A stretch of 32,000 bases of DNA from an uncultured Chloroflexia bacterium (GTDB taxonomy: Bacteria; Chloroflexota; Ktedonobacteria; Ktedonobacterales; JADMIN01). The position numbers and the translations under genes were made by a program. Position 1 is the stretch's first letter. Every line of letters begins with the position of its first letter. Under the pieces are notes generated by a model. That model searched no databases and was not told the DNA's origin. It saw only the letters and a program-made list of their open reading frames with translations. The DNA lies in NCBI GenBank assembly GCA_963718915.1, contig CAVRAI010000004.1, positions 360,001 to 392,000 of the forward strand, read 5' to 3'. Of this stretch, positions 22,024 to 32,000 are shown one piece after another.

Positions 22024-22993
22024 TCATGGCGAATTTCCGTCAGGAATGTCACGGGTGACTCTGCGCGGTGGGGCTTGTTGGCGTAGCGCCATTGGACGCA
22101 TTGGCAGCGCTGACGTCATCGCGTTAGCGTGCTGCGCGGTGTTTGTATGCTCGATGAACGGCCTGAGCAGGTTGGTAAACTCGGCAGGCACTACCAGCTT
22201 GGTGGATGGCGATGCGCCGAGCGCCTTGAGCGCATCCAGGTATTGCAGGCTCATCGTCTGATTGTCGAGGTGATCCGCGACCGAAGATATCTGCGCCAGC
22301 GCCTGTGAATATCCTTCGGCGCGCAGGATGGCTGCCTGGCGCGCGCCCTCGGCTTCGAGAATCGCGGCCTGCTTCTGGCCATCGGCGACTCGCACTGCGG
22401 CGTCACGCTTGCCATCGGCTTCGAGGATGATGGCGCGGCGGCTGCGCTCGGCGGACATCTGCCGGGTCATCGCTTCCTGAATCTCGTGCGGCGGGCTTAT
22501 CTCGCGGATCTCGACGGCCGTGACCTTGATGCCCCAACGTTCGGTAACTTCGTCGAGTTTGCCGCGCAGGGTGGAATTGATATCCTCACGGCGGGAAAGC
22601 ACCGAGTCGAGCAGCATATCGCCAACAACCGCGCGCAACGTGGTGATCGCGATGCCGCGCGATGCGTTTTCATACTGCTGAACGTTGATGACGCTCGACT
22701 GCGGGGTCGACGATCTTGGAGTAAATCAGAAAATCGATGGACAGCGAGGCGTTATCCTGGGTGATGCAGGCCTGCGGCGTGACGTCGAAGACTCGCTCGC
22801 GCAGATCGGTGCGAATGCCCTTGTCGACGACCGGAATGAGTAGAACCAGGCCCGGACCGCGCACACCCACCAGACGGCCAAGCCGCAGCACAACCAGACG
22901 CTGATACTCCGGCACGACGCGAATTGCCATCCCAACAAGAACGACACCTAGAAGAATGACGAGCACGGCGATCACAAAAGCTATTGGTGACAT
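22024..22993 (-). pseudogene. SPFH/Band-7 (stomatin/slipin-like) protein, split by one frame change
   Basis: 22670..22993 reads an N-terminal TM plus VVPEYQRLVVLRLGRLVGVRGPGLVLLIPVVD...SIDFLIYSKIVDPAVE. After a shift near 22690-22699 the next frame reads SVINVQQYENASRGIAITTLRAVVGDMLLDSVLSRREDIN...GIKVTAVEIREISPPHEIQEAMTRQMSAERSRRA. Confidence 0.8.
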
Positions 22994-23044
22994 GGTGGCG
23001 CCTCCTCCACGAAAACGATAGACTCACGAGCTATGATGTGACAC

Positions 23045-23724
23045 TCAGAGCAGTGATTCATCGGGCAGCCTCCATTCATATGGCCGGTGCACGAGGAGCG
23101 TTATCCCTTCCACTGCGAGCACCTCCACCGTCTCGCCTGCCTGAATCGGCCCGGCTTCCGCGACGGCGCTCCACTCCTCGCCGTTCACGCGGACGGTCCC
23201 ACGTAGCGCCAGGTCCGTGGTCGCCACACCTCCTTTCCGAGCAACGCCTCGCTCCCGCTCTTGCTCGGAAGATGACGGGTACGCAGGACGGCGCGCACGA
23301 CGACGAGGATGTAGCTACTGACCGCAAGCGTGCCAAGGCCAATGAGCCAGGGACTGATAGACCTGTCAGGCGTTTCGGGCGCTGGACCCACGAATGGTGT
23401 GAAGAGGAGCAGCGATCCCGCGACAAAGGCGATGACACCGCCCAGCGCGATCAGGCCAAACTGCGGCGAATGCGCCTCGGCGACGAAGAGTCCGGCGGCG
23501 AGGACAAGGAGCGCCACACCAAACCAGTTGACGCCCAGCATGCTGAATCCCAGTAGCGCCAGCGCCAGTGCGATCCCGCCGATAATGCCTGGGAAGAGGG
23601 TTCCTGGGTGATGGAACTCGCCGATAAGGCCAACGATCCCCAGGATGAAGAGGAGATATGCCACATTGGGATCCGCCAGCACCGAAAGAAACGGCCCTGG
23701 CATCGAGAGAAACGTCATCGGCAT
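23045..23724 (-). pseudogene. NfeD-family membrane protein (partner of SPFH), frame-shifted before its OB-fold domain and lacking an N-terminal protease domain
   Basis: 23185..23724 reads LADPNVAYLLFILGIVGLIGEFHHPGTLFPGIIGG... (the NfeD TM region) up to SEALLGKEV. A shift near 23224-23230 leads into VATTDLALRGTVRVNGEEWSAVAEAGPIQAGETVEVLAVEGITLLV (NfeD C-terminal OB fold, 23045..23227). Confidence 0.75.
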
Positions 23725-23790
23725 CGCTCGCCTCGCAATCCAGCGCTCACCGTCGCGTGGCTGGTCTGTTCGTCAACTAGTGAGGCGTCT

Positions 23791-23937
23791 ATGAGCCAAC
23801 GAGCAACAACCAGCGTCCTGCATGAATTTCATCTGCCGGAGCGAATACCATCTGATGGAACGGTCTATGAAACGTCCTACCAATACGTAGTATACGTCTG
23901 TTCAAAGACTTCAAGGCACACTCGGATCGCACGATGA
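23791..23937 (+). CDS. Candidate small protein (48 aa), unknown function
   Basis: GTGAGG lies 5-6 nt upstream of the ATG at 23791. It reads MSQRATTSVLHEFHLPERIPSDGTVYETSYQYVVYVCSKTSRHTRIAR*. A 7-bp hairpin plus T-run starts 11 nt after the stop. No family was recognised and it could be fortuitous. Confidence 0.25.
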   Translation: MSQRATTSVLHEFHLPERIPSDGTVYETSYQYVVYVCSKTSRHTRIAR

Positions 23938-23947
23938 AGATGAAAGG

Positions 23948-23966
23948 AGGAGAGGCAGACTCTCCT
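23948..23966. terminator. Short GC hairpin AGGAGAG-gcaga-CTCTCCT followed by TTTAT on the plus strand
   Basis: A perfect 7-bp stem read from the sequence. On the plus strand it follows the small ORF. On the minus strand it lies about 140 nt downstream of the GS-like gene end. Confidence 0.4.
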
Positions 23967-24103
23967 TTATGTAAATACGAAGCCCTGTAACAGTACGTTG
24001 CAAGGGCAGCGCTGGCGTTGTCGAAAGCCCCAGGTGAAAGGGCGCTGCGGCGTCTGCAACCGACTCATAAAATAACTGGGCGTCGGGGCCACTTCACCGC
24101 TGC

Positions 24104-25467
24104 TTAATACTTGTAGAAATGCTGGCGCGCCTCCTCCTCTGGCGGCATGTCGGCGAAGTGCTGGCATTCCAGTCGCTTGACCGCGAGGTAGGCTGTCATC
24201 TCAATGGGCCGAGGGCATCGGCCAGCACGGTATCTTGCTCCAGCGCATCCAGCGCCTCGTCGAGCGTGGCTGGCAGTCGGCTGATGTGGCGTTGCTGGCG
24301 TTCTTCGTCGCTCAGATTGGCTGGGTCAACATCGACTGGCGCCTGGATGCAGCTGGCGGCGGATGCCATCCAGCCCAGCCGCGATCAGCCCGCCAAGCGC
24401 CAGATACGGATTGCCGCTATGGTCGGCTGGTTTTAGCTCCAGGTTGGTCGATTCGGCCTCGCGCCCCCAGAATGGCGAGGGGATGCGAATCGCGCCCTCC
24501 CGGTTGTCGAAGCCATAGGCGGTATAGGCGGAACTCCAGAAGTGCGGCAGCAGCCGACGATACGAGTTGGGGCTGGCGCAGGTGAGCGCCAGCAGCGCTG
24601 GCAGATGGGCCAGCACACCGCCGATAAAGTGGTAGCCCAGCTGGCTGATTCCGCCCCGCCCCTGAGGATCATACAGCAGGTTGTGCCCCGCGTTGGCGGC
24701 GCCTGGAGTCCCCACAGACTGAAATGGATATGCGCGCCGCTGCCGGCCTGGTCGAGAAATGGCTTCGCGGCGAACGAGGCGAGCACGCCATGCTGCCGGG
24801 CGACGCCGCGCACGGTCTCACGCACCAGCAGCACATTATCCGCGGCGCGCAGCGCATCGGCGTGGATGGATCGAGAGCTCCTGCTGGCCGGGGCCAAGTT
24901 CCGGCATAAACTGCTCGACCTGAATGCCTTCCTGTTCCAGCGCCGCCAGGATGTCGTCGATGATCTGCGCCGACGAGTCGAAGCCAATGCTGCTGTAGCA
25001 GAGGCTTCGGTCATAGGGTGCGTAGCCGCCGTCGGCGTTTCACGCGCCAGATAAAACTCATGCTCCACGCTTGCCTGTACGGCAATGCCCATCTGCGCCG
25101 CCGCCGCCATCATGCGCTTGAGGAAGGTGCGCGGGCAGGCGCTCCAGGGCTGGCGGTCCTGCTGCGAATAGAGGTCGCAGAGCATCATGCCCGTGTTGGG
25201 CGCGTAGGGCAGCACGACGAAGGTATCTGGGTCGGGCACCAGGCGAAACTCGCCAACTGGCCCCATGCCGTCAACCGCCGCCAGCGCATCGACACCCGCA
25301 AATGCCTGCATGGCGAGCGACTGCCCGATTCCCTCAGCCATGCGGCTTTTCAGGCCATTGATATGGGTCGCTTTGCCGCGAATGATGCCGCCATTATCGC
25401 AGTACATGAAGCGCACCAGCCGCAGGTGCGCCTCTTCCGCGCGTTGGAGAACGGTCTCGCGGTCCAT
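24104..25467 (-). pseudogene. Glutamine synthetase-family (GlnA/PuuA-like) gene with about 5 frame changes
   Basis: The N-terminus is LRLVRFMYCDNGGIIRGK... The catalytic-domain pieces lie in different frames: VEHEFYLARETP | DGGYAPYDRSLCYSSIGFDSSAQIIDDILAALEQEGIQVEQFMPELGPGQQELSIH | ADALRAADNVLLVRETVRGVARQHGVLASFAAKPFLDQAGSGAHIHFSLWG | TPGAANAGHNLLYDP...SPNSYRRLLPHFWSSAYTAYGFDNREGAIRIP...[17 protein letters not shown] | [36 protein letters not shown] | [15 protein letters not shown]...YKY*. The shifts are near 25031-25038, 24862-24871, 24710-24716, 24331-24343 and 24197-24206. Confidence 0.85.
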
Positions 25468-25645
25468 GGCTTTCCTCCGGGCTATGACGCTGCACGCGAG
25501 GCTACTGCCCGCTGGCGTATCATACCTGATGACGACGGGAAGAAATGGCGCGAACGGGTAATGTACAGCGTATGACGTACGATAGGCAACGGCGAAATGG
25601 CTGTCAAGGCCACAGGCGCGGCGCTATGCGACTGGCGCGAGAAGG

Positions 25646-26925
25646 ATGGCGACGATGGAAGCGCTGGATCTGACTGATATTCCGGTCATAGACGAACACT
25701 GCCATGGATTCTACCTGCGCAGACAGCCGACTGATGTCATGGCATGGCGCCGCCATTTCACGGAGTCCGCGGACGAAAGCATTTGGCAGGAACATGTTCC
25801 TTCCACGCTCTTCTATCAGCGGCTGATGCGTGAGCTGGCGACGTTCTTTGGCTGCGAAGCCACGGAGTCGGCGGTGCTTGAGGCGCGAGTCGCTACCAAT
25901 CCGACGACCTGATCCGTGCATTTCTCCAGGCGGGCAACATCGAGACGTTGCTGATCGACCAAGGATATCCGGCGGCTGAACTGCTCATGCCAGATGCGGA
26001 TGTCGCGGCGCTCGCGGGCTGCCGGGTGGGTGCGTTCCTGCGGCTGGAAAACCTGATGCAGGAGTTGATCGCGGAGCACGATACGCTGGATGCCGTCACC
26101 GAGGCGCTGCGCGCGGCGCTCGCTGATGTGCGCGCGCAAGGATATGTTGGCCTCAAGAGTATCGTCGCCTATCGCACCGGGCTGGATATCCGCTGGTGGG
26201 AGAGGTCCGAGGCGGTGGACGTCATTTCACGCAGGCGCGCCAGGAGGCGGTCGAACAGGGACATCTACGCTTGCAGCACAAACCATTGCTCGATACCCTG
26301 CTGCATGTGGCATTCACCGAAGCGGCGCGGCAAGAGCTTCCGGTCCAGTTCCACACGGGCTATGGCGATACCGATGCTGATATGCTGCTGGCGAATCCGT
26401 TGCATCTGCGCGCCGTGCTGGAGCACCGGCCCTATCGCGGTATGCGCGTGGTGCTGCTGCACGAATGCTACCCATACACGCGCCAGGGCGGCTATCTCGC
26501 GGCGGTCTACGAGCAGGTGTATCTGGACCTTTCCTATGGCATCCCATTTCTCAGTTATGGCGAGATGGTCGCGTTTACCCGTGCGGCGCTAGGCGTCGCG
26601 CCCAACCTCGAAGCTGCTCTATAGCTCAGATGCCGTTGGGATTCCCGAACTCCACTGGATCAGCGCGCGCGACGGTCGCCGCATTCTTGGCCAGGCGCTG
26701 GGCGAATCGGTGGCGTATGGCGAATTGACCCTCTCGGAGGCCGAGACAGCCGCCATGGCAGTGCTCCATGATAATGCGGTGCGCCTCTATCGGCTCGGCG
26801 ATCGAGCCTCAGAAGTCATGATTTGCAACGTGAGTAGATTATGTAAAGGTTGGGTACGAGAGACCGAACAGAGCCAACTACTGGCGGATTGCTGTCTGTT
26901 CGTATATACTAAATTCGAGAAATGA
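25646..26925 (+). pseudogene. Amidohydrolase_2-like metal-dependent hydrolase with about 3 frame changes; final frame runs on to 26925
   Basis: ATG at 25646 after GAGAAGG. It begins PVIDEHCHGF (HxH metal motif). The pieces are ...ARVATNP | DDLIRAFLQAGNIETLLIDQGYP...YVGLKSIVAYRTGLDI...SEAVDV | FTQARQEAVEQGHLRLQHKPLLDTLL...PVQFHTGYGDTD...VVLLHECYPY... | SKLLYSSDAVGIPELHW...AVLHDNAVRLYRLG. The shifts are near 25899-25905, 26225-26232 (T-run) and 26600-26606. It is divergent from the GS-like gene. Confidence 0.75.
26869..26906 (+). terminator. Hairpin CGAACAGA-(22 nt)-TCTGTTCG followed by an AT-rich tract
   Basis: A perfect 8-bp inverted repeat read from the sequence, followed by TATATACTAAATT. 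It lies just after the conserved end of the amidohydrolase (..RLYRLG at about 26810). Confidence 0.35.
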
Positions 26926-27117
26926 AGATTTGGTGCCGCCGCTGTTTGTCGCTATTACGTAGATATGCGTTCGTGTAGGGCTTTTCCATTGCTGCCAGGC
27001 ATAATGAGTCAAGAGCACCTTGTTATTCATAGAGATGCTTGCACTTGTGCTTCTGTGGTAATCTGAATCGCGGCCCAGATTTAGATTCGTCTGACTTGCA
27101 CTGTTTGGAGTTTTTAA

Positions 27118-29648
27118 ACGGTCGCCAAAAGTGATGACCTTGACGTTACAATAGCTAAAGATCTACTTCGGGTAATCCGAGAAATTTCTGATGAAAGGTA
27201 TCAATATGACATATTCAGAGCGATATTCAACTCGGCCTCAGATATATCGCATGAATATTGTATAGAAGCAGCCCGCGAATTACATCCAAGTATATTTGGC
27301 GTTGCTGCCTTGACCGAGATAGCTGCAAACAGCGAAACAGAGCAGCAACGTCGGCTGATTAATGAGGTATTGGAACAGATCGCAAGATTATCCGAGCTTC
27401 GTGGATTTGCCCTTCTTTATCTACTCTTGCCTGCCATGAATAGGGTGCCTGTAAATGAATTTGCTCACGAATGATAGAAATTGCGTATGGGATTGAGAAC
27501 CGCGAGGAGCGTTTGGCATCACTTGCAGGTCTCCTTACTTTTACGTCGGTGAACTTGCTAGAGACTACGAAGAACACGTTAACAGAGTACCTGCCCCAGA
27601 GTTTTGACCCAGCTTTGCGCACTTTTATCATAGAACGTATGGCCTCGCAGTTAACGTCAGACATGGTATCGCATTCCCTCATGGCAGGCACAAGTAATTG
27701 GTTTGAAAGATTGGTTCATGATCGTGGGCTGCAACTTCTGATCTATGCGTGGGCATACCTCTGGCGAGATTTAGATCCCAAGGCGCAGCAAGAGTCACTA
27801 CTTCTTGCTCTTCGAGTTCCAGATATGCAAGCACGAGCACAAGCGGTAAGGCACCTCGCCAAATACCTGCCACATAATCTCATTGAGGCGGCATTGCACA
27901 GATCCACAAACTGAGAGATCAAGCCGATCTCGCCCAAATCCTTTCAGCGATTGCGCCTGATGTGCCTGTCGACCTGATGGATGACTTCTTAACCGCAATG
28001 CAGAGACTGAATGGTGGCTATACCACCGATGATATCCTTGAAGCTATTGCACCACGGCTGTCGCTTCAGCAGTGTGAGTTTGTCCTTGATCTCATTGATG
28101 GACTCGACAGATCGTACGACTCATGGGCGAAAGAACGCAATTTAAAAGCACTGGCGGTGTACCTTCCCGACACGCTAGTCGGACGAGCAGTCGAAATCGC
28201 CAATTCGATTCCAGAGCCATCGTTACGGGTAAATGTTCTACTGGCATTGGGTCACCTTCTTACGGCATCGCAATATGGCGAATTGCTAGACACTATCTCA
28301 GCAGCGGTAGGCGAGATCTACATGCCTGATGTCCTGAAACGCGTTGCGTCACATTTGCCGGAAGACTTTTTCCGCGATTCGTCAGTATATGCGAATCGGT
28401 AGATGAGTCCGAGGCGGTGGCAGATGCGCTCGCAGCACTTGCACCTCGCCTGACATCGACGGTCGGATGCAGCTCATTACTTTAGCCCGTAAACTTGTCC
28501 CAATACGAGCGCGCGTAAGGGCTTTGACACTGTTGTCGCCATACTCGACGGATGACCTGATGCTTGAGGCACTCACAATTGCCCGCACATCCGACAAACT
28601 AGACGACACGATTTATGCGTTGCAAATATTGGTGCCGCATGGTGGTGTTCAATGGGAGACAGAATGGCTAGGTTTGGTCATTGACTCTGCGCGTAAGGTG
28701 GGCCAGATTGATGACGGAGAATATGTTGACGAGTATGGGCGAGAACCTAGCCTCAGGCATTATGCTCCTGATCAGATACTCATGCAATTTCTGTTTGCCG
28801 TCGACCCCCGATTTCAGGGCGAATTGCTAACAGAATTGCTTCGTCAACTCCGATTGAGTGCTGATCAAACGCACTCGGCCGATGTCCTTATGCAACTTCT
28901 TGATTATTTGCCTGATGAGTTAATTAAGTCGAATCGTGCGGTATTCATCGAGATGACAAAGCACATCGCTGAGGATAGTTGGATTCAAACGTTGGAAAAA
29001 TATCAAGAGATATTGCCGGTTTCCGTCCTGAAGTGCGGTCTTGGCGCGACCTTGCGTCAAGGCGCTGGCAATAGGTTCTTCGGCGTCCAAGACGTACTTG
29101 ACCTTGCATTATCGGGGACTCCGATTTATCTATTGGGATCCTACGGTAAGAATAACGATCCGGTCGCAGGGGGGCCTGGAGATGTGCTTGCGTTGCTATA
29201 CAATTTCAACTTACTGCGGCCTCGTCGGCAACGCCGTCAAGTCACTGTGATGGTACCGCGTCTAGTTGCTGCAGGCCAGACGAGCCGCGTTCAGTTGAAC
29301 ATCGGACTAGCTGAGGGACAAAGCCGCATACAGCTGGTTCCCACGCGAACCATCCAATTAGTCGTCGAGATGCAATCTGGAGATTCTGCAATCCGTGTTG
29401 AAAATGGAAGAGTGCGATTGGTTGAAGTTGCCTGGGACAAGGACGTTTCGCCGCTATCGTTTGAGGTTTATGTGTCTCAGCTGGGCAGACACTCCCTGCA
29501 CATCAAGATCTCAAGTGGGCATGCTGAATTAGTCGTTCAGAAGGCAGACATTGAAGTTGTCCTCGACGCAGTAGAAGGCGCTTCGTCGGACGAATTCATA
29601 CTCACCCAGTCAGAGTTCAAAGTTGAACCTAAAGATGCTACTCGTTGA
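27118..29648 (+). pseudogene. Large alpha-helical-repeat (HEAT/ARM-like) protein with a beta-rich C-terminal domain, fragmented into at least 5 frame pieces; N-terminal part apparently missing
   Basis: The pieces are 27118-27474 (VAKSDDLDVTIAKDLLRVIREISDERYQYDIFRAIFNS...LLYLLLPAMNRVPVNEF), 27471-27914, about 27900-28402, about 28365-28455 (FVSICESVDESEAVADALAALAPRLT) and 28467-29648 (393 aa, the longest intact ORF). All share a recurring pattern of about 35-45 aa: L-x-A-L-A-P-x-L-P-x-x-L-x(6-10)-I-x-D-x(3)-R. The last roughly 130 aa (VTVMVPRLVAAGQTSRVQLNIGL...SLHIKISSGHAELVVQKADIEVV) alternate like a beta-sandwich. Confidence 0.55.
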
Positions 29649-29661
29649 TTTTCTCCATATA

Positions 29662-30300
29662 TTACTTGCCTTCAGGCTTAGACGCCAAAACGAAAGCAAT
29701 ACCATTAATGAGTGTGCTGAAAGCAATAAGTATGATATAAGCCGTGCTTAACCATGTCCAACCGAACGATCGTATCAGATATTGAGCAACTGAGAATTGC
29801 GCCACTGCCGGAAAAAGCAGCAAGGTGATTATTAGAATTGGCACGTTTGCAAGCCCCGTGAGGATCCGTACGAATCTCCCTTCCAGCCCTTCACCAATAT
29901 CCGTAATGACTGAGCTTATGTCAGGGTATTCCAATGGATGGGCTATCGCTTTATTGGAATATGGGTTTGGGTATCCAATGTCGAAATACAACTTAACAAT
30001 GATCCGGCGGAGCCGACGAAGGTGATTGGAGAGACCAACCAAATAGCTGAACAAAGCTGCGACAATGACAGAAAAGCCCAAAACTATCATCCACACAGGA
30101 ACATGAATTTCAAGTCCAGCAAGAGATAGCTGATTATCTGACTTTGCAATGCCAAACGACAGGAGGATTGTGATAGCGCTACAAACACACTGTAATAGAT
30201 AGGCTCTATTAATGCTTGTTCCGGTGGCTAGCATTGTTTCGTGGATGCGCTCGATGTAATGCAGGGTTAACTCACGCTCCTGAATTGGATATGAATTCAT
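29662..30300 (-). CDS. Orphan 4-TM membrane protein (212 aa), unknown function
   Basis: ATG at 30300 with AAGGTGA about 10 nt upstream. It has a soluble N-terminal helix of about 30 aa and four hydrophobic helices (AYLLQCVCSAITILLSFGI, VPVWMIVLGFSVIVAALFSYLVGL, ILTGLANVPILIITLLLFPAV, WLSTAYIILIAFSTLINGIAFVLA). It is convergent with the repeat gene, with a 13-nt gap. No family was recognised. Confidence 0.6.
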   Translation of the reverse strand: MNSYPIQERELTLHYIERIHETMLATGTSINRAYLLQCVCSAITILLSFGIAKSDNQLSLAGLEIHVPVWMIVLGFSVIVAALFSYLVGLSNHLRRLRRIIVKLYFDIGYPNPYSNKAIAHPLEYPDISSVITDIGEGLEGRFVRILTGLANVPILIITLLLFPAVAQFSVAQYLIRSFGWTWLSTAYIILIAFSTLINGIAFVLASKPEGK

Positions 30301-30447
30301 CCCGACCGCTCACCTTCATGAGTAGTTTCAGCCATATCTCAACTCCATTAGAATATGCGCGAGTGGACGCTACGCTATACAAGCTTAGCGTGTTATATCA
30401 TATTTATGCCTCAGGGAAACACGGAATCATGGTAGCTGACTATTCGC

Positions 30448-31920
30448 TTACAGCTTCGGGATGAGGGGACCGAACTGGTCCGCGGTGGGTTCCGCTCAGC
30501 AGAACCATGGCTCGCTTAGGTGGGGGACAGGTCGCCGTGCTCGCCGGAGCGTGCCGGTGGTGTCAGACATGCCTGCGCCCACCAGCGCCGGTTCACGCAC
30601 ACCCAGCCGCTCTGCTGCCAGGCGACGGATGGCGGCGAACGTCACCGCGATTGGCTCGCGCTGGCTGGCGGCGTGCTCGACCAGCGCCTGGACCTCGCGC
30701 TGCAACGCATCCATGCGCGGGTCGGGATGCTGCCAGGTGTAGCTGAGCGCCTCCTCATCCAACGGGCCGAGCCACCCTCGCCCAGCAGGGTCGTCCAGCA
30801 AGGCAGAGCTGGGCGGCACGAGCAGACGGATGGCGTACTGGATCGGGTCAACATGCTCCACCAGCCCATGTTCGGCGATGAAGTCCAGCACGTCAAGGTA
30901 GTCGCTGGCGGTGGTCCATGGCGTGAAGGCGACGAAGGTTGGGCGCATCGGGATGCCCGCGTCGTCCAGGATATCCAGCGCTTCGGCAACATCGGCGCGG
31001 CTATGGCCCTTCTTCAGATGGCGCAATACCCCCTCGCTCAGCGATTCGACTGCGGAGACGACGAAGGCGCAGCCGAGCGAGGCAAGCTCCGGGAAGATCT
31101 CGCGCCGTTCGAGAATGTGCTCGATCTTGATCGTCGCGTCGAAGGTCAGGTGTGGAAATTCGGCGTGCATCGCGCGGACAATCTCCAGTGAGTGGCGCGG
31201 ACCGTTGAGGAAGTCTGGGTCGCCGAAGGTGATATGCCCGACGCCAGCATGCGCCTGGGCGCGGATATCTTCGAGCACAAGCGGGCGCGGAATCGCGAAG
31301 AAGCGTCCGCCGTAGACGGGCGTGATCGGGCAATGGGCGCAGGTGTGCAGGCAGCCGCGCGTCGCTTCAACATAGCCCGCCGGAACGACCTCGTCGCCAC
31401 GTACCAGATAGGCGTAGGACTGCGGCGCGGGCAGCGTCTCGCGTTCGGGCGCGGCATACTCCAGCCGCCGCAGCACAGGCAGCGCATGATGGTCGCGCGT
31501 GCGCACGCCGGGTATCGTTTCGGGCGCGCTGCCCTGGTGCGATGATTCGAGCGAGTCGGCCAGCGCCAGCAGCGCCTCCTCATACTCGCCGCCGATGATC
31601 GAGTCGGCAACGGTGCGCAGCAGATAGTCGGCGTTGAGGGTGGCATAGAGGCCGTAGAAACAGATATGCGCGCTGGGATTGAGCGTTCGGACGCGCGCGG
31701 CGACATGCGCTCCCAGGCGCAGCGCGGTATGCATCGGCGCGGAGATGGCAACCAGTTTCGCCTGTGTGATAGCGTCATCGGATAGCTCGGAGACAGAGGT
31801 ATCGACCGCGACCGGCGAGAATCCGGCGCGGCGCAGAACCGCCAGAGGCGAGGCAAGACTGAGCGGCTGGTGACCCAGTTCGTAGCATGCTACCAGCAGG
31901 ATTGCGCCCGCTGCTCTCAT
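30448..31920 (-). CDS. B12-binding-like/radical SAM protein with a C-terminal C-U-A-E-P tail: CUAEP/CCAEP-tail radical SAM selenoprotein (TGA at 30496-30498 read as Sec)
   Basis: ATG at 31920. There is an N-terminal Rossmann-like B12-binding-type domain and a CxxxCxxC motif (ATRGCLHTCAHCP). The track ORF ends at TGA, but the minus strand reads TGC TGA GCG GAA CCC, which is C-U-A-E-P. It stays open to TAA at 30448-30450, giving ...SEPWFCUAEPTADQFGPLIPKL*, 490 codons. Confidence 0.8.
30467..30481 (-). promoter_or_regulatory. Candidate bacterial SECIS hairpin downstream of the in-frame UGA
   Basis: The RNA reads UGA GCGGAACCCACCGC-GGACC-AGUUC-GGUCC-CC. This is a 5-bp stem with a 5-nt loop containing GU, starting 14 nt after the UGA. 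A possible extra G-C pair lies beyond a C/C mismatch. Confidence 0.45.
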
Positions 31921-32000
31921 TTCTTCGCAGGAGCGGCAGGTGCGCCGCCCTTGCCCTTCGCGCCGCCGGCCCCCTCAGGAACCCAGCCCTCAGGCATCGC
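31917..32000 (-). CDS. 3' end of an upstream gene (partial), stop overlapping the radical SAM start (ATGA)
   Basis: The minus strand is open from the window edge: ...AMPEGWVPEGAGGAKGKGGAPAAPAKK*. TGA at 31917-31919 overlaps the ATG at 31918-31920. High GC makes chance open frames common, so this is tentative. Confidence 0.4.
   Translation of the reverse strand, partial: AMPEGWVPEGAGGAKGKGGAPAAPAKK

Follow-up and report, generated by a model that had tools for sequence, protein, structure and literature searches.

Two described systems stand closest to the gene considered here. One is the NCBI protein family NF040546 (rSAM_CUAEP, 'CUAEP/CCAEP-tail radical SAM (seleno)protein'), an equivalog-type profile of 468 positions for radical S-adenosylmethionine (SAM) proteins. 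The sole paper found to mention CUAEP, a 2022 preprint by Haft (10.1101/2022.07.06.499078), treats the family as uncharacterised, lists it among the CU selenoproteins and remarks that CU motifs are met with repeatedly among proteins that deal with heavy-metal atoms. The other is ArsL, a non-canonical radical SAM enzyme that cleaves the C-gamma-S bond of SAM to yield a 3-amino-3-carboxypropyl (ACP) radical; As(III) binds at its Cys-rich tail, without which no C-As bond is formed although SAM is still cleaved (10.1101/2024.02.01.577332; 10.64898/2026.04.29.721666). In the present work we examine a gene on the minus strand of a 32,000-nucleotide stretch of contig CAVRAI010000004.1, from a Ktedonobacterales-type genome (the whole stretch is hereafter called the window). 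With high probability it encodes a single 490-residue radical SAM selenoprotein of the NF040546 family, in which an in-frame UGA would be decoded as selenocysteine (Sec, U) under the direction of a selenocysteine insertion sequence (SECIS), and for whose tail an ArsL-like role can be proposed.

As gene callers read it, the gene is an ATG-started open reading frame (ORF) of 474 codons that runs from 31920 to 30499 on the minus strand and closes with GAG CCA TGG TTC TGC (...EPWFC). It is followed by a TGA at 30498-30496, by 15 sense codons (GCG GAA CCC ACC GCG GAC CAG TTC GGT CCC CTC ATC CCG AAG CTG) encoding AEPTADQFGPLIPKL, and by a TAA at 30450-30448. Readthrough would give 474 + U + 15 = 490 residues, with the C-terminus ...EPWFC-U-AEPTADQFGPLIPKL. 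The first-pass annotation, made from the letters alone, had proposed this reading, and the position of the TGA and tail, their letters, the 16 extra codons and the length of 490 residues all prove exact on the minus strand. The features concerned are the following.

30448..31920, minus strand: complete gene of the CUAEP-tail radical SAM selenoprotein (490 codons and the TAA stop); the product starts with a Rossmann domain of the B12-binding-like type, after which come the radical SAM core, a C-terminal domain, the variable linker and the Cys-Sec tail
30499..30501, minus strand: Cys474, the Cys of the vicinal C-U pair, invariant in both alignments (A1 and A4)
30496..30498, minus strand: in-frame UGA, predicted Sec475
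30448..30495, minus strand: tail after the UGA, AEPTADQFGPLIPKL, and the TAA stop

The TGA at 30498-30496 is almost certainly read as Sec, which would make the gene 16 codons longer than gene callers report. An open frame of this length after a stop means little by itself: its chance is (61/64)^15, or ~0.5, so that it arises in about half of random sequences, and any significance must come from comparison. Reassignment of TGA throughout the genome was considered and rejected, since TGA is the normal stop of yggX, of a MATE gene and of a TrmA-like gene in the same window; the recoding would accordingly be site-specific.

For the profile searches the protein was taken from the minus strand of the window and U was written as C. 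A hidden Markov model search with the 490-residue protein, which the first-pass annotation had suggested as a check, gave 712.5 bits against NF040546, well above the cut-off of 500, and thus identified the family that had been named there. In the alignment, residues 7-484 of the protein, the last nine of them past the TGA, are matched to positions 1-467 of the 468 in the profile, and the name-giving C-[U/C]-A-E-P motif is found as ...EPWFC-U-AEPT... at 30501-30484. Among Pfam models, Radical_SAM (PF04055) was matched with 49.1 bits (threshold 29.5), and the B12-binding domain scored 29.7 bits, below its gathering score of 32.1. The nearest database proteins are at most 92% identical and come from Ktedonobacterales metagenome-assembled genomes, and several of them already carry the NCBI CUAEP family name; a look-up of the exact 474-residue product returned no record. 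More widely, a scan of one genome per species found relatives in at least 587 genomes, the carriers belonging to the soil phyla Chloroflexota, Gemmatimonadota, Planctomycetota, Methylomirabilota and Acidobacteriota. The window protein shares with the family the full-length match, the CX3CX2C motif, the C-U-A-E-P tail and the order of domains, with no structural difference and a best match 92% identical. Judged from its sequence, it is a further orthologue in a catalogued selenoprotein family and no new kind of protein. TIGR04167 (rSAM_SeCys), treated in a 2022 review (PMC9312934), likewise comprises a selenocysteine-containing radical SAM enzyme; it is a different family, which does not appear among the NCBIfam matches of the window protein at E <= 0.01.

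The comparison on which the recoding depends was made with 85 fetched related loci and that of Thermomicrobium roseum, 86 in all, representing 80 distinct sequences. Every one of the 86 has WFC-[TGA|TGC|TGT]-AEP, and among the distinct sequences the column is TGA in 66 and a Cys codon (TGC or TGT) in 14. Downstream of it, AEP(T/S)xxQ(F/L) is conserved in TGA and Cys forms alike; in Ktedonobacterales the tail goes on as ...PL(T/I)P(K/Q/R)(L/F), with 15 residues in Sec and Cys forms equally. The alternation of Sec and Cys at this column and the conservation of AEP and the residues after it (AEPTxxQ[F/L]), points to which the first-pass annotation had tied its case, are thus both present. It could be argued that the TGA is a true stop, that the enzyme has 474 residues and ends at Cys, and that the 45 nucleotides (nt) beyond are untranslated 3' sequence, whose hairpin (see below) acts as a terminator or stabiliser of the transcript. 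Gene callers and RefSeq do annotate the gene in this way: as the first-pass annotation had expected of standard ORF callers, 105 of the best 120 database homologues stop at ...WFC, the other 15 running on as WFCCAEP(T/S)... in Cys form. We read the 105 as gene-caller truncations. The codons in dispute correspond to a stretch whose translation is beyond doubt in the 14 Cys forms, and the profile alignment itself extends past the TGA. Differences from close relatives within the tail are synonymous (CCG/CCC for Pro, AAG/AAA for Lys), and the frame after the TGA is open for 10-27 codons in 66 of 66 TGA forms. Nucleotide homology to the closest relatives (L001, L002 and L007) extends across the tail as far as the TAA of the longer ORF, breaking off at 30444-30449. 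A true stop is therefore very improbable.

Alternatively, the TGA could have been introduced in error during assembly, or the gene could be decaying and the TGA be the mutation that inactivates it, and it is the case that four genes nearby in the window (22.0-26.8 kb) are frameshifted. The remainder of the radical SAM gene is, by contrast, intact and in frame, and the 66 distinct TGA sequences come from independent genomes of at least six phyla (according to the record labels), cultured isolates included, so that this explanation appears scarcely credible. Cultured carriers that lend themselves to experiments comprise three with Sec (T. roseum DSM 5159, Ktedonosporobacter rubrisoli SCAWS-G2 and Thermalbibacter longus) and one with Cys (Thermogemmatispora aurantia A1-2). 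T. roseum DSM 5159 provides an instance of a cultured, sequenced organism in which a Sec form is annotated in truncated form: on its megaplasmid (NC_011961.1; locus L086, 11953-13470) the RefSeq coding sequence WP_012643191.1 stops at the in-frame TGA, beyond which the frame reads AEPLEDPSGPVASQVRMVDQPLR and the RNA can form a hairpin GGACC CGUCG GGUCC.

The same 45 nt, found above to be conserved as protein in line with the first-pass annotation, also carry an RNA signal. Two folds lie around the UGA.

30465..30483, minus strand: bacterial SECIS-type hairpin, predicted from its fold and from covariation across TGA forms
30488..30506, minus strand: possible 8-base-pair (bp) stem GGUUCUGC / GCGGAACC with the UGA as triloop, predicted from its fold and of uncertain status

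The hairpin consists of a 5' arm GCGGACC (30483-30477), a loop AGUUC (30476-30472) and a 3' arm GGUCCCC (30471-30465), and in the window it has seven pairs, with one C.C mismatch at the second pair; its stem begins 12 nt and its loop 19 nt downstream of the UGA. Covariation was assessed with 64 distinct TGA-form sequences aligned without gaps, the submitted structure comprising both the hairpin and the UGA-enclosing stem. Compensatory changes on both sides were seen in six of the seven hairpin pairs (for example A-U 36/G-C 22 at one pair, C-G 33/U-A 19/G-C 5 at another). The two-helix structure had a covariation score of 0.267 as compared with 0.166 for shuffled alignments, and none of 500 shuffles reached 0.267. 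When the 3' arm was slid by 1-3 columns, pairing fell from 92.8% to 30-52%. Of 65 sequences, 58 have a loop of the form AGUUN; the G at the second loop position is invariant, and the U after it is present in 61 of 65. Moreover, the peptides encoded across the hairpin take 42 different forms among 66 sequences while the hairpin stays constant, which argues that the constraint acts on the RNA. Finally, the median minimum free energy is -10.6 kcal/mol in Sec forms and -4.0 kcal/mol in Cys forms (Mann-Whitney p = 2e-8). The compensatory pairs, together with the absence of the hairpin from Cys forms, identify 30483-30465 as a predicted bacterial SECIS-type element, kept by compensatory substitutions in UGA-bearing genes only. 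It has no U-tract, no terminator was called there, and a promoter and terminator scan of 30200-32000 found none of either, which does not favour a role of the hairpin in ending or stabilising an mRNA that stops at Cys474. Among the Cys forms, T. aurantia A1-2 is an exception, its TGC gene holding a near-intact copy of the hairpin (GGGGCC AGUUC GGCUC; L052, 7393-7440); this looks like the remnant of a recent replacement of Sec by Cys.

The location of the hairpin, with its loop 19 nt past the UGA, fits bacterial SECIS elements. It shares with the element of E. coli fdhF and with the bSECISearch model of Zhang and Gladyshev its place within the coding sequence, shortly 3' of the UGA, from which 12 nt separate its stem; it departs from them in that the stem is short (5-7 bp), the loop has 5 nt (AGUUN) and a bulged U is not evident. 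By analogy with established Sec decoding in bacteria, SelB carrying Sec-tRNA(Sec) would bind this hairpin on the translating mRNA and insert Sec. The second fold is harder to judge. The UGA-enclosing stem is 99.6% paired across TGA forms, a figure that is confounded by the invariant WFCUAEP codons and accompanied by one-sided wobble changes only. The Ala codons GCY, which would break a pair, occur in 2 of 66 Sec forms and in 6 of 14 Cys forms (Fisher p = 2e-4, uncorrected for phylogeny). Avoidance of GCY in Sec forms is suggestive of selection for the stem.

Some results could be set against Sec decoding. The genes selA, selB and selD and a tRNA-Sec were found neither in the 32-kb window, where no ORF corresponds to a sel gene, nor in the ~1 Mb of related loci. 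ARAGORN detected tRNA genes nowhere in the window, nor did it detect a tRNA-Sec among 60 related loci, and a tblastn search of the related loci with E. coli SelA and SelB gave one weak match to a pyridoxal-phosphate enzyme (L038). A search with SelA of a plasmid collection, to which the T. roseum chromosome does not belong, listed no Thermomicrobium match. The search for sel genes covers 32 kb of the source genome and carries no information either way; the capacity of this genome for Sec decoding we infer. The trait has been described in some Chloroflexi (PMC5322559), and a literature search on Ktedonobacter or T. roseum and selenocysteine found no statement about their Sec machinery. In addition, an Rfam scan of 30300-30650 returned chance-level matches only, with no family that fits the hairpin. 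To our knowledge Rfam holds no general bacterial SECIS model, so that the missing match carries little weight.

Assuming that the protein is the 490-residue selenoprotein, its anatomy is that of a radical SAM enzyme with a tethered tail, for which two further features are relevant.

31330..31353, minus strand: radical SAM cluster motif C190-x3-C194-x2-C197 (CLHTCAHC), invariant in alignments A1 and A4 and common to the ArsL-type protein
30535..30663, minus strand: linker of low conservation (about residues 420-462) that joins the catalytic core to the tail motif RRPxPHLSEPWFCU, which is conserved

Outside the cluster motif, C284 is invariant and C12 and C87 are invariant or nearly so. Among homologues the linker measures ~45-55 residues and varies in both sequence and length, with the conserved motif (R)RPxP(H/R)L(S/T)ExWFCUAEP on its C-terminal side. 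Structure was predicted for a Cys-form homologue that is 69% identical to the window protein (P0033). The AlphaFold model has a mean pLDDT (predicted local distance difference test) of 85 and a pTM (predicted template modelling score) of 0.86; the core is confident, and the linker and tail (~445-483) have pLDDT values of 23-65. The model thus hints that linker and tail are possibly flexible. Foldseek found AprD4 (6fd2) as the best solved match to this model (E = 3e-19, TM 0.68-0.72), followed by cobalamin-dependent MgmA (9ccb), OxsB, TsrM, TokK and CysS. AprD4 and the cobalamin-dependent class B enzymes resemble the protein in having a Rossmann-like N-terminal domain and a partial TIM (triosephosphate isomerase) barrel, and the matches therefore indicate a class-B-like architecture of a Rossmann-type N-terminal domain and a radical SAM barrel. 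All six differ from it, however, in sharing only 13-22% sequence identity and in lacking a Cys-Sec tail. A sequence search of the PDB gave weak matches only (9ccb and 6fd2), with no solved structure of ArsL or of a CUAEP protein among them.

By sequence, the nearest characterised homologue is ArsL. Over the core (~420 residues), the window protein shares 38% identity with an ArsL-type protein encoded on a plasmid of Bacillus cereus. The two have in common an N-terminal Rossmann-like domain, a radical SAM core, many motifs and a vicinal Cys pair in the C-terminal tail, and in a MAFFT alignment the CC of the RCCLKC tail of ArsL stands opposite C474-U475. The window protein differs from ArsL in possessing an extra variable linker of ~55 residues and in its use of Sec. 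A literature search for papers joining ArsL, selenocysteine and radical SAM found none. The Bacillus gene (L088, 1438-13218, on plasmid pAH820_272 of B. cereus AH820) lies inside an arsenic island with genes for a MIP channel, a GTP-binding protein, a GNAT protein, ArsR, ACR3, ArsC, ArsD and ArsA.

Genomic context offers a further view of what the enzyme may do. The following neighbours recur, the counts of the last four having been obtained by clustering 82 non-redundant loci.

31917..32000, minus strand: 3' end of the upstream gene yggX, its last 27 codons and TGA (...AMPEGWVPEGAGGAKGKGGAPAAPAKK*), identical to the C-terminus of YggX in the related locus L001
Fmt-like formyltransferase, divergent upstream: 29 of 82 loci
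L-amino-acid-ligase-type ATP-grasp enzyme (ATP-grasp_4 + LAL_C2), downstream: 20 of 82 loci
Nfu-type Fe-S (iron-sulphur) carrier, directly downstream: 12 of 82 loci
DUF169 protein, nearby: 6 of 82 loci

In the window the TGA of yggX overlaps the ATG of the radical SAM gene (ATGA), and the latter is translationally coupled to yggX, the gene of an Fe-S protection protein. A yggX orthologue matches NF003817 ('oxidative damage protection / Fe(II) trafficking protein') with 128 bits (cut-off 74) as well as PF04362, and yggX stands immediately upstream in 49 of 86 loci. One database protein of 574 residues (P0110) carries a YggX domain fused in frame to the N-terminus of a Cys-form radical SAM protein of the CUAEP family; with only two member sequences, on a 2.8-kb contig, this fusion may be an assembly artefact. 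In Planctomycetota and Vicinamibacterales the gene comes first in a co-directional series with Nfu (Nfu_N + NifU), DUF169 and the L-amino-acid ligase, an order that looks like an operon in three loci.

L050, 2398-6652: rSAM-Nfu-DUF169-ligase cluster
L059, 6001-10478: rSAM-Nfu-DUF169-ligase cluster
L077, 2-4446: rSAM-Nfu-DUF169-ligase cluster

Three Methylomirabilota loci (L053, L055 and L085) have the same arrangement without DUF169, and in Chloroflexota the partners are yggX upstream, the divergent Fmt-like formyltransferase and a convergent ligase. That either YggX or Nfu stands beside the same enzyme in different phyla argues for a cluster that is either consumed or exposed to an unusual degree, and a product resembling an amino acid would be consistent with the ligase and formyltransferase. 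The surroundings of ArsL differ, comprising arsM and arsQ or an ars island as opposed to the yggX, Nfu, L-amino-acid ligase and formyltransferase of the CUAEP genes. The Bacillus island has an ATP-grasp protein nearby, a distant relative of the ligase that neighbours CUAEP genes (26% identity, E = 2e-18). In two Gemmatimonadota loci (L066 and L067) an ORF of 144-164 residues with a VCGCS motif lies directly downstream of the Cys-form gene; by motif alone, it resembles the bacilliredoxin-type thiol-disulfide oxidoreductases.

These observations can be assembled into a mechanism. Translation would yield a protein with a vicinal Cys474-Sec475 pair, 15 residues before the C-terminus, which would sit at the end of the variable linker on a class-B-like radical SAM core with its CX3CX2C site. 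The tail might then act as a swinging arm that holds a soft atom (a metalloid, a chalcogen or a thiophilic metal) in the active site. There a SAM-derived radical (possibly ACP, the one generated by ArsL) would create a bond between carbon and a heteroatom; in lineages with an adjoining L-amino-acid ligase and formyltransferase, the amino-acid-like product could be processed further. Homology to ArsL, in the form of 38% identity and the vicinal Cys pair of its tail, suggests such a substrate-holding Cys-Sec arm and does not prove it. That the tail works as in ArsL, presenting a soft atom to a SAM-derived radical, we propose by analogy and tentatively, placing it somewhat short of an even chance. 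Vicinal chalcogen pairs near the C-terminus, on a mobile segment, are also found in thioredoxin reductase (GCUG) and in the mercuric reductase MerA (CC); the arm of the former shuttles electrons, and that of the latter a soft metal ion, to or from a buried active site. Both are flavoprotein disulfide reductases of unrelated fold, and the resemblance is one of functional analogy only.

Several findings speak against this catalytic proposal. The ArsL profile NF040542 (RCCLKC-tail) is the second-best NCBIfam model for the window protein, which favours the analogy, but its 312.1 bits lie under the cut-off of 450. The FC-U-AEP tail lacks the arsenite-binding RCCLKC (CCxxC) motif itself, and the vicinal pair alone aligns; R-C-C-L-K-C would supply three soft ligands, as compared with two in C-U-A-E-P. 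Genes for ars, mer or selenium metabolism were not found in the conserved neighbourhood, and no ars gene adjoins the radical SAM gene in the window; the one case nearby is an arsC 11 kb from the gene, in T. roseum only. In the window's own clade yggX is the sole linked gene, and clustering of the lineages without YggX or Nfu revealed no conserved neighbour in Thermomicrobiales and several other lineages. Lastly, the data accommodate both ACP-radical and 5'-deoxyadenosyl-radical chemistry.

The same selenoprotein could instead use its Cys-Sec tail as a redox, hydrogen-atom or group-carrier arm, with no part in holding the substrate. The pair might form a selenenylsulfide/selenolthiol couple like the GCUG of mammalian thioredoxin reductase, Sec-H might serve as the hydrogen-atom donor that quenches a product radical, or the pair might, like the nucleophilic Cys355 of RlmN and Cfr, take up and carry a methyl or ACP group. 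The first-pass annotation had called the pair redox-active, which is an assumption. Most bacterial selenoproteins employ Sec in redox catalysis, and a vicinal C-U pair on a C-terminal arm of low model confidence would suit this role. The bacilliredoxin-like ORF with its CGC motif, directly downstream in the two Gemmatimonadota loci, points in the same direction, as does a gene context without metalloid-related genes. AprD4, the best structural match, performs 5'-deoxyadenosyl-radical chemistry. Cobalamin presumably plays no part in AprD4 and ArsL, so that there would be space for a different carrier. Nevertheless, the Cys-rich tail of ArsL binds the substrate atom, and AEP is invariant after the pair though a simple redox couple would not need it. 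On balance, an arm of this kind, the chief alternative for the role of the tail, has clearly less than an even chance.

It is tempting to extend the substrate-holding proposal to the family as a whole. The CUAEP enzymes might constitute a second, far more widespread branch of the ArsL type, in which a seleno- or metalloid-amino acid is made and converted into a dipeptide-like metabolite, with YggX or Nfu supplying an exposed Fe-S cluster that is possibly sacrificial; the ligase and formyltransferase would then act in many aerobic soil bacteria. We consider this extended scenario distinctly improbable.

The DNA on the 3' side of the gene shows some peculiarities of its own. A 3.6-kb insertion of low GC content (26833-30447; 46-50% as compared with ~60% GC) directly adjoins the TAA that closes the extended radical SAM ORF and is absent from three related loci (L001, L006 and L007). 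It holds four ORFs (27471-27914, 27962-28402 and 28467-29648 on the plus strand, 29662-30300 on the minus strand), none of which had a Pfam or PADLOC match, and no att-like direct repeats were found at its flanks. In two relatives that are 92% identical a different mobile element occupies the same position, ~100 nt past the radical SAM stop (L002, 2141-9400; L003, 8164-8538), with genes for a tyrosine integrase, an excisionase-like HTH_17 protein and a DDE transposase. The 3' end of the radical SAM gene thus seems to be a recurrent site of insertion. Further on, at 22049-26832, consecutive genes for Amidohydro_2, glutamine synthetase, NfeD and Band 7/SPFH proteins are each frame-switched relative to intact orthologues in L001 (near 25888, 25033-24205, 23236 and 22700). 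These may be assembly indel errors or a run of pseudogenes.

NF040546 had already been catalogued under a name that states the Sec/Cys tail, and the 2022 preprint lists it, so that our result is a re-annotation and no discovery. What is corrected is the gene itself, whose product has 490 residues and a Cys-Sec pair where 105 of the best 120 homologues and the RefSeq entry of T. roseum are truncated at Cys. The covariation of the SECIS, the link to ArsL, the context of YggX/Nfu and of ligase, formyltransferase and DUF169, and the list of cultured carriers appear unreported in the literature searched. For the family, the SECIS, the linker, the coupling to yggX or Nfu and the linkage to ligase, formyltransferase and DUF169 turn 'uncharacterised' into hypotheses that can be tested, and its nearest characterised relative, ArsL, carries out an unusual radical C-As bond formation by means of a Cys-rich tail.

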